Positions 19,369 through 26,259 of a stretch of 64,000 nucleotides of DNA are shown here, one piece after another. The position numbers were made by a program, and so were the translations under genes. The first letter of the stretch is position 1; each line of letters begins with the position of its first letter. Location: contig CM000155.2 in assembly GCA_000004695.1 (NCBI GenBank), positions 3,264,001-3,328,000 on the forward strand. Reading direction: 5' to 3'. The DNA is from Dictyostelium discoideum (lineage: Eukaryota). The notes beneath the pieces were generated by a model. That model saw only the letters and a program-made list of their open reading frames with translations, had not been told where the DNA came from and did no database searches.

Positions 19369-22300
19369 TTATTTTGAAGAAATTAAATCTAATAAAGAAA
19401 TTGGAATTGAATTAAATAATTCAGTATCTTGTAAAATTTTTAATCTATTTTTACCAATATAACCTAATAAATAATTGAATAAAAATGCTAATTGTAAAGA
19501 ATATTTTGATTTGTGAATAAGAGTAAATAGTATACAAGCTTGTTTCAAATCAATTGATTTCTTTAGAATTCCAAATAATTCATTTGTAAGTTTATAATTA
19601 CCAAAACTAGTTGTTAAGAATAATAAATCTAAAATTTCATCACCAGAATTAATATTTAAATCTTTAGTAGTTTTTAAGAAAGATTTTTCAATTAACTCTT
19701 TTGAGAAACCAAATAATTGAATTGTATTATCATTTCCATTTTCTTTATTTGAAATTAATTCATATAAATATGGTGGTAAACATGCACTAGTTGTAGAAAT
19801 AATTGATTTTGTAAATTCATCATTTGAATTTTCTTGTTCTTGTTGTTTCTCATCATCACTACCTGAAAGTTTATTTTTTAATAATGAATCAATAAAATCA
19901 TAATTTTTGAAAAACCATAAGGATGATGATGATGAATTATAAACTTCAATTGTAATTGGTTTATCAACTTTTAATGAATTATTATTATTATTATCGTTAT
20001 TATTATTATTTAAACCATTTGGATGTAAAGGGAAATTTGATAAATCGTTCCAATACATTGAAGCATAGAAACCAGCTTTTGCATTATTATATTTATTAGA
20101 ATCAGAGATTAAAGTTGGGTTATAACAAAATTTTCTAGAACCTTCAACTAATTGATTTAGATCAGCACAACCCATACCATAGATTTTATTATTTTCAGTA
20201 ACAGCTATCCAATGACTACTACCACAAGATATTTTCTTAATAATTGTATTTTCATCAGGGAATGGTAAAGTGATTTGTTGAATTGGTTTTCTAGATCTGT
20301 CACTACCAATGCCCAATTGATAAAGTTTATTATCAACAGTTAAAGCCAACATTAATTTTGCACCAACAGCAACGTCAACGAATTTTTCATGTTTTGCAAC
20401 ATGTGTTGGAGTTTGTTGATTAGCAGGGGATTGATTTAAAGGGAATGGTAAAAAAGTTGGATCATAATGTTCAGAATTAATAAATTCAACATGTAAACTA
20501 ATGAAACATTTAATGAATCTTTCTAATGAGTAAGAATTATTTTTTGACCATAAAAGTAAAGAGATTGCATTCTCTTTAGTAATAGAATTTGAAATTAATT
20601 TCAATAAACCATCTTTAAATCTTGTCAACTTTAATTGATCACTAGTTGAACATAATGATAAAACAAAATCACCAGTTACAATTTCTTGTGGTAATAAATC
20701 AAATTTAATACGATCACAATATAAATATGCAATAATTAATATTAAATGATTATCTGGTATTGTTTTATCATTTAATTTAATTTCATTTGAATCATTTGAA
20801 TCATTTGAATTATCTATTTGATCAACTAATAATAAATTTTTAAAATAATTTAAACGTGAAATTAAAATTGATTTATGAGCTTTAATTTTAATTTTACCAT
20901 CATTTGAAATGATTGTACAATCGGATAAATTATCATCATCATTATTAAATCTTTTTAATAATTTACTTGGTATTGATAAATCTGATTCCTCTTGAATTAT
21001 ATTGAATGAAGTTTCATTTAAATAATTTGTTAATTGTTTACAATTGAAAAGTTTAGAATATTGAAAAAGTATTTTCATATTTCTTTTTGAAGTTGTATTT
21101 GTATAAATGAATGAAATGAAATCAATGAATGAATTTGAAAATAATTGATTCTCTTCAATTAATTGATCAAGTATTATTTTTTTATTTGATTCTTTATTAA
21201 AATCATCATCATCATCACCTTTACCATTATAATTCTTTGTTTTAATTACTAAATTTAAAAATTCAATAATATCAATTTTAACGATTTTATTAATTGATTT
21301 TAATTTTAATTGAATTAATTGATTTAATAATTCATCATTTTCTAAAATTGTTAAAAGTATTAAATGACAATAAGCTATTTCTTCAGTATTTTTATCTTTA
21401 CCAAATGTAATATGTAAATCTGAAAATTGTTTATTATTAATTAAATATGAATAATCTCTAGTTATTGATGAGGATGCAACCAATATTGATGGCAAATACT
21501 TTTTATCCGGTTCAATTGTGAATAGTGGTGGTGGTGAGGCTGTAGTTTCTTCAATACCAAGTTGAAAACGATCATTTCTACCACAAACAAATAGGTTACC
21601 ATTCTTTGTAATGAATGCACTATTAAAACCACCTGCTGAAATTTTTAAAATTTCAGAATCATTTTCATTATTATTTCTAGTATAATCATTAATATAATAA
21701 TTATTACTATTATTATTATTATTAATTTCACCATTATAATTTATAAATTCAATTGGTGTTGGTGTTTTAATATTTCCATTATTTGAAGTAACTATACCGA
21801 TTGAGTTAAATGTATTGGCACCCCAACCATAAACAGAGCCATCGGTTGCCAAAGCGATACAATGGTGATGACCAGATGCAATTTTTTTAATTGGTTTTTT
21901 CATTGGGTATGGATGAGTTGGCGATGCTTGACCATTTGAACAAACTTCAAAAAATAAACCCCAATTCCAAACCATACCATTACTATCTAAAATCGAACTA
22001 AAATAACGACCACATGAAATTGATTTAATTGGTGTTTTAAATTTAAAAATTCTATCTCTAACAAATAAATCACTTGAGAATAAATAATATTGAAAATTTA
22101 AATCGTCATAAAAATTATATACTGAATTTTTTTCGTCACCATTAACTCCTTTCTGGTCATCACAACTTTCATCATCAGTATTGGTGGTTGTAAATTTAAT
22201 TCTTTTCGATTCTCTTTGTTCTAAAGTTTCATTTTCAAATTGAACTGAAACAGATCTATTTCTACTTAATACCATATCAGAGATATTATCACTTTGATTC

Positions 22301-22476
22301 ATTATTTGCATTGTTTCGGGATGATTAGTTGTAGTTTTACTCTTATATTGATAATTATTTGTTACAGATTTTGATCCACTTGATGATTTTAAATAATAAC
22401 ATCTATAAAGTAATGACATTAAATTAAATTTAATTGATCCTTTGATTTCATTGGTTTTTAATTCATTTTCAATCAT
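19369..22476 (-). CDS. RCC1-repeat and BTB/POZ domain protein (1035 aa as a single exon; a further 5' exon at 22629-22763 is possible)
   Basis: ATG at 22476-22474. RCC1-like blades appear near both ends (GHHHCIALATDGSVYGWGAN..., SSHWIAVTENNKIYGMGCADLNQL). A central BTB-like segment is present (SDCTIISNDGKIKIKAHKSILISRLNYFKNLL). The upstream ORF MDIEQKQFFTEISDLFKS... (ATG 22763) could splice onto KLCLKGRNVDTIIPMIENELK at 22520. That requires a weak GTGCCT donor at 22627, so the extension is uncertain. Confidence 0.65.
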   Translation of the reverse strand: MIENELKTNEIKGSIKFNLMSLLYRCYYLKSSSGSKSVTNNYQYKSKTTTNHPETMQIMNQSDNISDMVLSRNRSVSVQFENETLEQRESKRIKFTTTNTDDESCDDQKGVNGDEKNSVYNFYDDLNFQYYLFSSDLFVRDRIFKFKTPIKSISCGRYFSSILDSNGMVWNWGLFFEVCSNGQASPTHPYPMKKPIKKIASGHHHCIALATDGSVYGWGANTFNSIGIVTSNNGNIKTPTPIEFINYNGEINNNNNSNNYYINDYTRNNNENDSEILKISAGGFNSAFITKNGNLFVCGRNDRFQLGIEETTASPPPLFTIEPDKKYLPSILVASSSITRDYSYLINNKQFSDLHITFGKDKNTEEIAYCHLILLTILENDELLNQLIQLKLKSINKIVKIDIIEFLNLVIKTKNYNGKGDDDDDFNKESNKKIILDQLIEENQLFSNSFIDFISFIYTNTTSKRNMKILFQYSKLFNCKQLTNYLNETSFNIIQEESDLSIPSKLLKRFNNDDDNLSDCTIISNDGKIKIKAHKSILISRLNYFKNLLLVDQIDNSNDSNDSNEIKLNDKTIPDNHLILIIAYLYCDRIKFDLLPQEIVTGDFVLSLCSTSDQLKLTRFKDGLLKLISNSITKENAISLLLWSKNNSYSLERFIKCFISLHVEFINSEHYDPTFLPFPLNQSPANQQTPTHVAKHEKFVDVAVGAKLMLALTVDNKLYQLGIGSDRSRKPIQQITLPFPDENTIIKKISCGSSHWIAVTENNKIYGMGCADLNQLVEGSRKFCYNPTLISDSNKYNNAKAGFYASMYWNDLSNFPLHPNGLNNNNNDNNNNNSLKVDKPITIEVYNSSSSSLWFFKNYDFIDSLLKNKLSGSDDEKQQEQENSNDEFTKSIISTTSACLPPYLYELISNKENGNDNTIQLFGFSKELIEKSFLKTTKDLNINSGDEILDLLFLTTSFGNYKLTNELFGILKKSIDLKQACILFTLIHKSKYSLQLAFLFNYLLGYIGKNRLKILQDTELFNSIPISLLDLISSK

Positions 22477-23473
22477 TGGTATAATTGTATCAACATTTCT
22501 ACCTTTTAAACATAATTTACCTAAAATTAAAATTAACTAAAAAATTTAAAAAAATTAGTATATTTTTGATTGGGAAAAAAAAAAAAAATAAAAAAATAAA
22601 AAAAAAAGTATTTTTTAATTGAGGCACCTACTTTATATTTAAATTCATTATTATCTGTTATTGTTGTTAATTTTTTATTAATTAATCTAATAGCTTTAAT
22701 TAGAAGATTGGATTTAAATAAATCTGAAATTTCTGTAAAAAATTGTTTTTGTTCAATATCCATTATTTTTTTAAGAATAGATATAGGAAAAAAAAAAATT
22801 TTATAAAAATATGTTATAACAATAATAAAGAAAAAAAAAAAAAAAAAAAGTGAGAAAAAAAAAAAAAATTTTCAAGAAAAATATAAGATTTTTTTTCTAT
22901 TTTTTTTGTTATTTTTGATTAAAAAAAAAAAATTGAAAATATCTATTTTTGAGAGTAAGAAATGTTTTGAGGCAGAAAAAAAAAATAGTTTTTCTTTTTT
23001 TTTTTTAATTTTATTTTTCATCCATTTTTTTTAACAATTATTTAAATTTATTTTTAATATGAATTTAATAGATATATAGAATACCCAAATTACACAAAAT
23101 AATATTAAATAAAAAAAAAAATGAATGCAAACATTCTGTTTTTTTAATTTTTTTTTCTTTTTTTTTTTTTTTTTCTAATCAAAAATTATTTTTAGAATTT
23201 AATTATTTATTTACCAATTTTTTATAATTGATTTTATTTTTTATAATTGATTTTATTTTTTATTTTTATTTTTTTTTTTTTTCAATGTCAAATTTGACAT
23301 GTTATTATTTTTTTTTTTTTTTTTGATTAAAAAAAATTAAAAAAAAAATAATAAAAATAACTATTAAAATAAAAAATAAAATAGGTAACATCTATTTTTA
23401 ATTTTAATTTTTAAATATATTTGTTTTTTTTATTTTTTTATTTTTATTTTTTTTATTTTTTTTTATTTTCAAT

Positions 23474-24018
23474 TCACATGATTTTACAAGATTGGTTTTT
23501 ATTTTTCTTTGGAAACGAAGATGGCGAATAAGAGATTGAAGTTATTGAAGACAAAGAAGATGAAGATGATGAAGTTATTGAAGAAGAAGAACAACTTAAG
23601 GATGATAATGATGATGATGATGATAATAATAAGAAATTTTGAAAATTATTTATAATTATAGTTAAGTTTATGAAAATATCCATTATTCTAATATTAAATT
23701 TTGCAGATGATTCAATGAAATGATTTGAGGTATAACCTAAATCAATTGCTAATTTTTCACCTTGTTCAGGTAATATTAAACGTTGTACTGATAGATCACA
23801 TTTATTACCGACGATTATCAACGGTACTTGTTTAGTTTCTCTAATTTTTTGAATCTCTGAATGAATGACCTTAATTTCTTCAAATGATTGAATTGAATCA
23901 ACTGAATATAATAATATAAATCCATTTGCATTTTTTATATTCTTTTTTCTAATTTCTTTATTTTGAATAGACTGATTACCACTATCAATCATTTTTAAAA
24001 TATAATCATTTGGTATAC

Positions 24019-24097
<79 letters not shown>

Positions 24098-24303
24098 ATT
24101 ATTATTTAAATTTTTATTATTATTATTATCATTTTCAATTGTAATTAATTTTTTATAAATTTGATCTAAAAAAGTTTCAAAATATTTTCCATCGTTTAAA
24201 AATTGACATATTATACTTGATTCTCCAGTTTTTTTACTTCCTAAAATTAAAATTTCATATTCTTTGATTTTATTTTTATTAAAATTATTGTTATAATTAT
24301 TAT

Positions 24304-24307
<4 letters not shown>
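23474..24307 (-). CDS. Divergent Ras-like small GTPase (277 aa): degenerate P-loop and switch II, 32-residue poly-Asn insert, C-terminal polybasic stretch plus CaaX box (CKIM)
   Basis: ATG at 24307. G1 reads GSKKTGES where GxxxxGK[ST] is expected, so the Lys is Glu. Switch II reads DSGNQS where DTAGQE is expected. G4 is an intact NKCD (VGNKCDL) and G5 is ESSAK. The C-terminus reads ...PKKNKNQSCKIM*. Confidence 0.65.
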
Positions 24308-24356
<49 letters not shown>

Positions 24357-24366
24357 AAATTATATT

Positions 24367-24726
24367 TTAGATATTACCATCACCAAAATTTGTTGCAACC
24401 ATTGGTTTACCACGATGAGCTAAATAAATGTCATATCCTTTTGATTGAATAAGATTTGTTTTAAATTCATAATGATGTTTTGCTTCATAATTATCACATT
24501 TATGAACTGGATGACAAATGAAAACATTTAAATTTTGAGCAACATAATGATTTACAACACCTTGAGTGAAATCAGATTGTGAACAATTTGGAGTACCTTT
24601 AAAAATATTTTCCAAATCTGCAAAGACCTTATTAAAATCTATATCAATTGAAATATCAGTTTGTACATTTGGTTGAATTTGATTGGTTTCATTGACTGAA
24701 TTTGATTTTTTAATTTTTGAATTCAT
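24367..24726 (-). CDS. Hypothetical protein, 119 aa
   Basis: ATG at 24726 and stop at 24367-24369. Only a 59-nt poly-T spacer separates it from the GTPase gene. No confident homology. Confidence 0.35.
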   Translation of the reverse strand: MNSKIKKSNSVNETNQIQPNVQTDISIDIDFNKVFADLENIFKGTPNCSQSDFTQGVVNHYVAQNLNVFICHPVHKCDNYEAKHHYEFKTNLIQSKGYDIYLAHRGKPMVATNFGDGNI

Positions 24727-25578
24727 TTTTTTTTTTTTGTTTTTTTGTTTATTTATTATTTATTATTATTAATATTAACAATCTATAATTGAAATGAAAA
24801 AATTGAAAAAAATAAATAAAACAATTTATAGTTTTTTTTTAAAAAATTATAAAAATTAAAATTTATTTTAAAATAAATTTATAAAAAATGGAGGTAATGA
24901 TTTTAATTATTTATAAATCTGATAAAAAAAGAGGGTTTAAATATTCTAATTATAAATATTTTAAAAAAATTTTAAATCTGGGGTTAAAAAATAAAAATAG
25001 AATAAAAAAATTAATGTTTTACCTTTTTCTAATTTCAGAAAAAAAGTGTTTTTTTTTGTATATCCACCTCCATCCTAATTTTTTTCACAAATCCAATATA
25101 TCCATTTTTTAAAATAAATTATTATTATTATTATTTTTTTTTTTAATAACATTGTCATTAAAGATAAATAAAAAACTATAACCAAACAGAAAAATAATAA
25201 AAATAATAATATTAATAACCCCTCAAACAAAAAAAACAAAATATATATTTTTTAAATAATTTTTTCATTTTACCATTTTATTTATTTTTTAATATTAATT
25301 TTTTTTTTTTTACCATCTATAATTATTTTTAAAAGATCAACAATCACTTTAATGTTTGGTATCAAAAGTTTATTTATAAATATTCAAATAATGATAAAGA
25401 AATAAAAAGGAAAGTTTTTTTTTTTTTTTTTGTATATATTAAAAAAATGAATTTATTTTTAAATAAATTAGATTAATGAACAATTTTGAGTTTTATTATT
25501 TAAAATAAAACAAAATAGTTATTATGATAATAATTTGTAGAGATTGTTTATTGAGGGTGTGGAATGATTTTTACAATT

Positions 25579-26259
25579 TTAGAAAGATAAGGAATTGAAC
25601 AATGGTTTTGTACCACCACCTGGAATGATTACGTGACCATACATTGAATGTAATTCAATGTCATTAGCAATGGCTAAGAAAATATCTCTTGGTTGAATTA
25701 AAGTTCTCTTGGCTGATACTGCCCCATTACTAGATAACTCTAATATTTCAGAAAGCAAATATTCAATAACAGCTGATAAATAATGCATTGAAGAATTTGA
25801 AATTCTGTAATTATAATTCATTTGTTTTACCTTTGTTTTTAAATAAGAATGTGGGATTATTGGTGGGTGGGAAATTGGTGGAGCAGGAATTGAAGAAGGG
25901 GATGAAGGAGTGGCGGTTTTTGCTGGTGGTGGTTGTGGTGGATATTGCTTTGCGGAATTAAAATTTGTAACTCTTTTAACACCTTCAGAGACTGCATGTC
26001 TTGAAATTTCACCAACAGTACATAAACGAACGGAAGTTTGAACGTCACGTGCACTTAAGGTTCTTTTATTTGAAAGTTGTACTAAATGAAATGCTTCATT
26101 CATAATACTAATTGTTGTATCTCTAATTAAACTAGTTAAAATTTGAACACTCTTAACTTGAATTCTACATGCTGGATTAATTTGTTTAATTAACTTTTTG
26201 ATGTAAATTCCTTCTCTTACATGTGTATGCTGTGTTGATCGTCTTCCTCTATGTCTCAT
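25579..26259 (-). CDS. H2Bv3: Single-chain histone H2B-H2A fusion: N-terminal H2B histone fold, Pro-rich linker, C-terminal H2A histone fold and docking region (226 aa)
   Basis: ATG at 26259. Residues ~15-105 (EGIYIKKLIKQINPACRIQVKS...NKRTLSARDVQTSVRLCTVGEISRHAVSEGVKRVT) align with H2B alpha1-alphaC. Residues ~150-220 (YLSAVIEYLLSEILELSSNGAVSAKRTLIQPRDIFLAIANDIELHSMYGHVIIPGGG) align with the H2A alpha2-alpha3/docking region ([57 protein letters not shown]). The symbol comes from my recollection that the Dictyostelium H2Bv3 variant carries both domains. Confidence 0.75.
   Translation of the reverse strand: MRHRGRRSTQHTHVREGIYIKKLIKQINPACRIQVKSVQILTSLIRDTTISIMNEAFHLVQLSNKRTLSARDVQTSVRLCTVGEISRHAVSEGVKRVTNFNSAKQYPPQPPPAKTATPSSPSSIPAPPISHPPIIPHSYLKTKVKQMNYNYRISNSSMHYLSAVIEYLLSEILELSSNGAVSAKRTLIQPRDIFLAIANDIELHSMYGHVIIPGGGTKPLFNSLSF

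Follow-up and report, generated by a model that had tools for sequence, protein, structure and literature searches.

A candidate farnesylated pseudo-GTPase of Rap/Rheb-like ancestry in the Dictyostelium discoideum clade

Results

A Ras-family gene lies between an RCC1/BTB gene and histone H2B.v1

The window analysed here, a stretch of 64,000 nucleotides, is Dictyostelium discoideum chromosome-6-like sequence whose ORFs neighbouring the gene described below are identical to AX4 DDB_G0294573, DDB_G0293754, DDB_G0293760, histone H2B.v1, and an RCC1/BTB protein. On its minus strand we found an uninterrupted, intronless ORF of 277 amino acids plus stop; given the base composition of the window (23% G+C), approximately 7e-7 ORFs of this length are expected by chance per 64 kb. 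The encoded protein matches the Pfam Ras family PF00071 (E = 4.9e-22, 78.7 bits against a cutoff of 21.6). It matches 511 PDB sequences at E <= 1e-3, with Rap1b (E = 1e-21) and Rheb (E = 1e-19) as the best. The gene and its immediate upstream boundary are as follows.

23474..24307, minus strand: complete intronless CDS of a Rap/Rheb-like Ras-family protein (ORF listing, PF00071, orthologous ORFs, dN/dS)
24308..24352, minus strand: 45-nt poly(A) leader directly 5' of the ATG, at the junction of a missing segment (assembly comparison)

Orthologous ORFs are called as genes in six other assemblies, two of which are D. discoideum. An intron in the Asn tract or in the tail was considered and rejected, as no GT...AG intron is visible by eye in the tract and the length differences among orthologues are all in frame. 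We also judged a 48-aa ORF on the plus strand (23509..23655) to be spurious; it lies wholly inside the Ser-rich coding region of the minus-strand gene, and nothing that we compared it with matched.

Word-indexed searches of the protein collection returned four orthologues, and the exact ORF of the window is absent from that collection. The called orthologues with poly-Asn tracts (L007 4457..5290, L004 9125..10009, and L005 9120..9947) are likewise absent from it and have no Pfam record. Absence of such low-complexity-rich Dictyostelium proteins from the collection can therefore not be read as absence of annotation. Around 19369..26259 the AX4 RefSeq/UniProt series runs XP_628969/Q54BC5, XP_628970/Q54BC4, XP_628972/Q54BC2, and XP_628973/Q54BC1, and the missing XP_628971/Q54BC3 falls exactly at the position of the Ras-like gene, between the RCC1/BTB protein and H2B.v1. 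This gap indicates that the gene is probably annotated in AX4. Our literature search found no paper on this gene.

The upstream region is missing from the window

A D. discoideum assembly that is 99.9% identical to the window (GCA_054883475.1) carries approximately 770 bp between two poly(A) runs that the window lacks (L007 3637..4405). Within this missing segment lie the 3' portion of the neighbouring gene's intron, its exon 2, and the whole intergenic region upstream of the Ras-like gene (approximately 670 bp). All other assemblies have 520-670 bp at the corresponding upstream region. Either the reference assembly has collapsed at this point, or a strain-specific deletion has removed the promoter of the Ras-like gene; with the upstream region absent from the window, expression in the sequenced strain is uncertain. 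The neighbouring model DDB_G0294573 (24367..24726, minus strand) encodes 119 aa ending in ...GDGNI*, while its counterparts in other strains and species have 136-146 aa and a second exon (...GDGGESQWGYGGAFTREHQTIKYQ); the model appears to be truncated because of the missing segment. Both the missing upstream region and the neighbour's missing last exon bear on users of the sequenced strain or of its gene models.

The phosphate-binding half of the G domain is altered while the base-binding half is canonical

We next list the motifs of the protein from N-terminus to C-terminus.

24218..24241, minus strand: G1/P-loop GSKKTGES, with Lys at Ras positions 12 and 13 and with Ser17 kept (translation, alignments)
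24221..24223, minus strand: Glu29 (GAA) in place of Ras/Rap Lys16 (alignments to Rap1b and 26 canonical relatives)
24155..24193, minus strand: remodelled switch I/effector region DGKYFETFLDQIY, 2 residues shorter than in Ras, YDPTIED lost (alignments)
24020..24127, minus strand: Asn-rich insert, aa 61-96, in the beta2-beta3 hairpin (translation, model)
23969..23986, minus strand: G3/switch II DSGNQS, against DTAG(T/Q)E, with Asp57 kept, Thr58 changed to Ser, Ala59 to Gly, and Gly60 to Asn (alignments)
23795..23806, minus strand: G4 NKCD, the guanine specificity motif, canonical (translation, alignments)
23699..23713, minus strand: G5 ESSAK, canonical (translation, alignments)
23513..23629, minus strand: Ser-rich linker of approximately 39 residues, predicted to be disordered, the hypervariable region (model pLDDT <50)
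23477..23512, minus strand: basic patch and CaaX box PKKNKNQS-CKIM (X = Met, farnesyltransferase-type), PKKNKNQSCKIM, followed by the stop (translation)

Taking the positions on which at least 75% of the 26 canonical relatives agree, we find Gly10, Gly15, Ser17, Asp57, NKxD, and SAK unchanged in the protein, and Thr58, Ala59, Glu37, and Asp38 altered. Glu at position 16 and Asn at position 60 each occur in none of the 26. Thus, of the motifs that define a canonical switch GTPase, G1 GxxxxGK[S/T] and G3 DxxG are absent while G4 NKxD and G5 SAK are present. The placement of the switch I threonine (Ras T35) depends on the alignment: HMMER puts a Thr (FET) as a one-residue insert beside the T35 position, while MAFFT deletes DPT. 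In the HMMER alignment the effector loop YDPTIEDSY becomes YFETxLDQIY, with D38 changed to Gln and S39 to Ile. The remodelling of switch I is conserved among orthologues, and the rewritten switch II segment reads DSGNQSIQNKEIRKKNIKNANG. At the C-terminus, CKIM with the upstream KKNKN forms a Ras-type prenylation signature that is conserved in all orthologues, from which prenylation itself is predicted.

These alignments bear out the original prediction that the P-loop Lys is replaced (GSKKTGES), that DSGNQS stands in place of DTAGQE, and that NKCD, ESSAK, and a polybasic-CaaX tail are intact. That prediction also placed a 32-Asn tract between the two switches. The location is right, in the beta2-beta3 hairpin of the model, but the count is not: the insert has 36 residues (NNNNKNLNNNYN25), of which 33 are Asn and the longest pure run is 25. 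TRF identifies the DNA that encodes it as an (ATT)38 repeat, 24020..24133. The number of Asn residues ranges from 4 to 33 among strains and species, always in frame, and varies even within D. discoideum. Two other D. discoideum strains have 4 and D. cf. discoideum has 5, while D. citrinum, D. dimigraforme, and the window have roughly 19-32. One A/T difference within the tract, Lys66 versus Asn66, separates the window from L007. We conclude that the tract is a polymorphic triplet repeat of the kind ordinary in Dictyostelium, and that in its surface hairpin it is dispensable rather than a functional feature.

The protein retains the Ras fold

For AlphaFold modelling we took P0010, the D. discoideum allele with a short tract, and an alignment of 30 sequences; the G domain of P0010 is 96% identical to that of the window. 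Mean pLDDT is 78, with the core above 90. The order of secondary structure is canonical (b1-a1-b2-b3-a2-b4-a3-b5-a4-b6-a5), giving a six-stranded sheet and five helices. The model is less confident over switch I (block means of 69-82), over the beta2-beta3 hairpin that bears the Asn insert, and over switch II; disorder extends over the last 43 residues, with a pLDDT below 50 in the C-terminal tail. In Foldseek comparisons the model superposes on farnesylated KRAS4b, Rap1B, and RRAS2 with a target TM of 0.85-0.92, and the highest sequence identity, 32-34%, is to Rap1B.

The aberrant motifs are conserved and under purifying selection

Orthologues were found in D. discoideum (three strains), D. 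cf. discoideum, D. citrinum, D. dimigraforme, and D. firmibasis. The set comprises six loci read as DNA and two further strain proteins, with P0012 standing for one further strain. Gene order is common to the orthologous loci: H2B.v1, a 138-aa gene, the Ras-like gene, RCC1/BTB, a 178-aa gene, and RPN1. Identities of 82-96% were found for the Ras-like G domain among D. discoideum strains, D. cf. discoideum, and D. citrinum. The adjacent RCC1-repeat/BTB gene (19369..22476, minus strand) diverges fast, with identities of 76% in D. citrinum, 62% in D. firmibasis, and 36% in D. purpureum.

All orthologues retain GSK(K/R)xGES, D(S/N)GNQS, NKCD, ESSAK, and CKIM, so that the substitutions that had been predicted from a single sequence are kept in every dictyostelid orthologue found. 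DSGNQS is identical throughout except in D. firmibasis, which has DNGNQS. The basic pair at Ras positions 12 and 13 is conserved as K/R in all orthologues, reading KR in D. dimigraforme, and the KK.K basic patch is kept next to an invariant CKIM. The codon of Glu29 is GAA, a single transition from AAA, in six of six orthologue DNAs, and neighbouring codons carry synonymous differences between orthologues. Since GAA recurs alongside such synonymous changes, sequencing error is ruled out.

We found a G-domain dN/dS of 0.05-0.15 (Nei-Gojobori, dS up to approximately 0.6), with p values from 8e-13 to 2e-16 in a binomial test against neutrality. The N-terminal third alone, which contains the aberrant P-loop and switch I, gave a dN/dS of 0.09-0.23 (p = 0.0015-0.014). 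The corresponding values were 0.07-0.11 for the beta3-switch II-alpha2 segment and 0.03-0.24 for the C-terminal tail. The orthologues are too close, at a dS up to approximately 0.6, for these values to separate motif-specific from general constraint. The purifying selection on the N-terminal third indicates that the N-terminus is translated and constrained, which goes against the refuting condition named with the original prediction, namely that this region is no part of the transcript.

Known members are confined to the D. discoideum clade

When 1.8 billion cluster representatives were searched exhaustively with HMMER, one orthologous cluster was returned (P0011, 511 bits). The next hits (P0016-P0024, 150-96 bits) are tandem multi-domain Ras proteins, and we rejected them as orthologues because the scores of their domains add up. 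The best single-domain hits after P0011 are Rap1-like, at approximately 90 bits. The Ras-like gene has the RCC1/BTB gene as its neighbour in the whole D. discoideum clade. In D. purpureum this adjacency does not hold: neither a Ras-like gene nor a tblastn signal was found within +/-10 kb of the RCC1/BTB orthologue, and synteny is broken on that side. The members known so far thus appear confined to the D. discoideum clade, as seen in a word-indexed collection that lacks long poly-Asn proteins.

Among the 149 next-best representative clusters, a P-loop that genuinely lacks Lys occurs once, in an Entamoeba dispar protein. This protein (P0037, EDI_041020, 186 aa) is Rap-like, with the P-loop GGSNSGVT (Lys to Val) and HTAG for DTAG, and it retains NKCD and a CaaX box, CSLV. 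Judged by its motifs, it resembles a prenylated pseudo-GTPase that arose from Rap independently. A different arrangement is seen in P0017, P0018, P0020, P0024, and P0025, from unidentified eukaryotes, which are tandem two- or three-domain Ras-like proteins that pair a degenerate G domain with a canonical one; their degenerate domains include GSVVINKP and IDPGE for DxxG.

The protein is equally close to Rap1 and Rheb

In profile comparisons with PDB sequences the scores were 89-90 bits for Rap1, 86-87 for Rheb, 75 for Rap2, and 62-72 for Ras. Sequence identity is highest to human RHEB (38.7% over 163 aa) versus 33% to RAP1B. Of the residues shared with one reference only, 20 are shared with RHEB, 10 with RAP1B, and 3 with HRAS; the blocks KLIT(V/I) and YSV.SI.SFE.IKVIH are among those found in RHEB alone. 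By these comparisons the protein is equidistant from Rap1 and Rheb and probably derives from a Rap1/Rheb-like ancestor.

The likeness to Rap1 (RapA in Dictyostelium, RAP1A/B in human) consists of the top sequence and profile matches (80-90 bits, 32-34% identity), the same fold, NKCD, ESSAK, and a C-terminal CaaX box after a basic patch. Unlike Rap1, the protein carries K16E and G60N, has Gln instead of Thr61, has lost YDPTIEDSY, and has a CaaX box ending in Met rather than Leu; it also adds the Asn-rich hairpin insert and the Ser-rich linker of approximately 39 aa. The marks of the Rap subfamily, namely Thr61, the effector loop YDPTIEDSY, and a CaaL geranylgeranylation box, are therefore absent from it. 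Rheb ties with Rap1 statistically and shares with the protein a basic residue where Ras has Gly12 (Arg15 in Rheb) and a farnesyl-type CaaX box ending in Met. In contrast to Rheb, the protein has lost the P-loop Lys and DTAG, differs in the effector loop, has NKCD rather than NKKD, and has an unrelated switch II, the segment that in Rheb is the main contact with mTOR. A single canonical Rheb is reported for Dictyostelium (PMC1273635, PMC8370755).

Dictyostelium RapC resembles the protein in length (278 aa versus 277) and in having a long C-terminal extension after a Rap-like domain (PMC8370755). However, RapC has Gly13 and Ser18, part of a canonical N-terminal P-loop, and is 51% identical to RapA (PMC8370755), while the ORF has Lys13 and Glu18, a P-loop at residues 23-30, and approximately 33% identity to Rap1. 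We therefore rejected identity with RapC; the protein may be RapB or one of the 'unusual small GTPases RsmA-K' that are mentioned in PMC1273635.

Discussion

Our data indicate that the protein unites a G-domain fold, degenerate nucleotide motifs, and maintenance by selection, the attributes by which pseudoGTPases are recognized. On its sequence, we class it as an uncharacterised pseudo-GTPase of the Ras superfamily that would have an unusual combination of a Lys-to-Glu P-loop, an intact base pocket, and a farnesyl signal. Other pseudoGTPases (Rnd, RhoH, and RGK; CENP-M and the p190RhoGAP pG domains; microsporidian ArlEM) likewise retain, under selection, a G fold with degenerate motifs as a non-enzymatic module. 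In Rnd, RhoH, and RGK the P-loop Lys is still present and GTP is bound, and CENP-M and the p190 pG domains have lost nearly all motifs. The protein described here differs in that only the phosphate/switch half has been lost, while the base-binding half and the lipid anchor are canonical. The concept of a pseudoGTPase class is cited in PMC13393502.

We favour, with moderate confidence, the reading that this is a functional, young, clade-restricted, farnesylated pseudo-GTPase that lacks a GTP/GDP switch and serves as a membrane-tethered fixed adaptor or regulator. In Ras proteins Lys16 contacts the beta- and gamma-phosphates, and Thr35 and Gly60 are the gamma-phosphate sensors of the 'loaded spring' model of Vetter and Wittinghofer. 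In the protein described here, the G-domain fold and the half of the pocket that holds the guanine base (NKCD, ESSAK) are retained, while the three residues that read the beta- and gamma-phosphates are replaced (Lys16 by Glu, the context of Thr35 in switch I, Gly60 by Asn) and both switch surfaces are rewritten. With its phosphate-sensing residues replaced and its switch surfaces rewritten, the protein probably does not cycle between GTP and GDP and presents one fixed interaction surface. The disordered Ser-rich linker would end in the basic patch and CKIM, which is predicted to be farnesylated, clipped, and methylated, and the lipidated CKIM would tether the G domain to the membrane. There the protein may serve, independently of nucleotide, as an adaptor or regulator that, for instance, holds or sequesters a partner or pairs with a canonical G protein, as the IRGM 'GMS' proteins do.

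That the protein is not a conventional switch, and that it is prenylated, had both been proposed from its sequence, and both survive as the best reading: the Lys, the DxxG Gly, and the canonical switch I are replaced in every orthologue found, and the CaaX box and basic patch that predict prenylation are conserved. The suggestion that it is a decoy fares less well where classical Ras/Rap effectors are concerned. Because the effector loop is replaced and switch II rewritten, a decoy for classical RBD/RA effectors, or a Rheb-like TOR activator, seems unlikely from the sequence, and a role as adaptor, trap, or partner in G-domain pairing seems more plausible.

Nucleotide binding had also been predicted to be defective. 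Weak or absent binding is what the replaced phosphate site suggests, and complete loss, which would make this a class i pseudoGTPase, is our inference from K16E and G60N, with the intact G4 and G5 calling for caution. The intact Ser17, Asp57, NKxD, and SAK speak against our preferred reading, since they are not expected after long evolution without nucleotide. A tentative alternative, which we rate as rather unlikely, is that the protein binds guanine nucleotide in a non-canonical way, either constitutively loaded and non-switching like Rnd, RhoH, and RGK or with the basic pair at positions 12 and 13 replacing Lys16. It would explain why G4, G5, Gly10, and Gly15 are kept along with Ser17 and Asp57 and why the 12/13 pair stays K/R in all orthologues, and Rheb, one of the two nearest families, has its basic Arg15 at the Gly12 position. 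The IRGM proteins are a relevant parallel. According to PMC2532785, the 'otherwise universally conserved' P-loop Lys is naturally replaced in the IRGM 'GMS' proteins (GX4GMS), which are membrane-bound, regulate canonical relatives instead of working as ordinary switches, and still act nucleotide-dependently. One results section of the same source is titled 'Irga6-K82A is constitutively active', and elsewhere in its text K16 mutations are said to leave GTP binding deficient in several GTPases. A missing P-loop Lys is therefore no proof of lost binding. The natural loss of this Lys is what the GMS proteins share with the protein described here; they differ in belonging to the p47 IRG family rather than to Ras, in having Met rather than Glu, and in keeping their other G motifs intact. 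Against nucleotide binding, a Lys-to-Glu charge reversal beside the phosphates is harsher than Lys to Met or Ala, and Gly60 and the context of Thr35 have also been lost.

A doubtful sub-case of the preferred reading is that the protein is a built-in dominant negative, that is, a membrane-tethered, nucleotide-free-like G protein that traps RasGEF or RapGEF and so tunes Ras/Rap signalling. Engineered Ras S17N, G15A, and K16N are interfering mutants that trap GEFs. They carry lesions in the same P-loop segment as the protein described here and, like it with its conserved anchor signal, are still membrane-targeted. However, the engineered mutants keep the wild-type switch regions for GEF binding, while in this protein switch II, the main contact of the CDC25 domain, is heavily rewritten. 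The cellular setting would suit such a trap, as Dictyostelium has at least 25 RasGEFs against 15 proteins of the Ras subfamily, and among the possible targets suggested for Gfl proteins are 'unusual small GTPases' (PMC1273635).

We regard as more speculative still, and quite improbable, a rewired phosphate site in which KK/KR at positions 12 and 13 takes over from Lys16 and nucleotide is held through NKCD and SAK, with no gamma-phosphate-sensing switch. To our knowledge, relocation of the P-loop lysine would be without precedent among small GTPases; the WNK kinases, with their relocated catalytic lysine, are a comparable case. If true, this would be a mode of nucleotide binding not yet described for small GTPases.

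Finally, we effectively exclude that the gene is a decaying pseudogene, that the ORF arose by chance, or that its P-loop codon reflects faulty sequencing or assembly: the absence of the exact ORF from the protein collection is a database property common to the L004, L005, and L007 orthologues, and the upstream region missing from the window is outweighed by the same motifs in independent assemblies of about five species, length differences that are in frame in every orthologue, and the low dN/dS of the G domain.

For Ras/Rap/TOR signalling during chemotaxis and macropinocytosis, Dictyostelium serves as a main model organism, and counts of its Ras subfamily usually arrive at 15 proteins. The farnesylated pseudo-GTPase that we favour could be an unrecognised modulator of these pathways. 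Furthermore, a Rap/Rheb-like protein that bears a lipid anchor signal and lacks both the P-loop Lys and the DxxG Gly shows which parts of a G domain stay useful after switching is lost. Because its known members all come from the D. discoideum clade, the family may have changed from switch to pseudo-switch recently enough for the steps to be traced one residue at a time.
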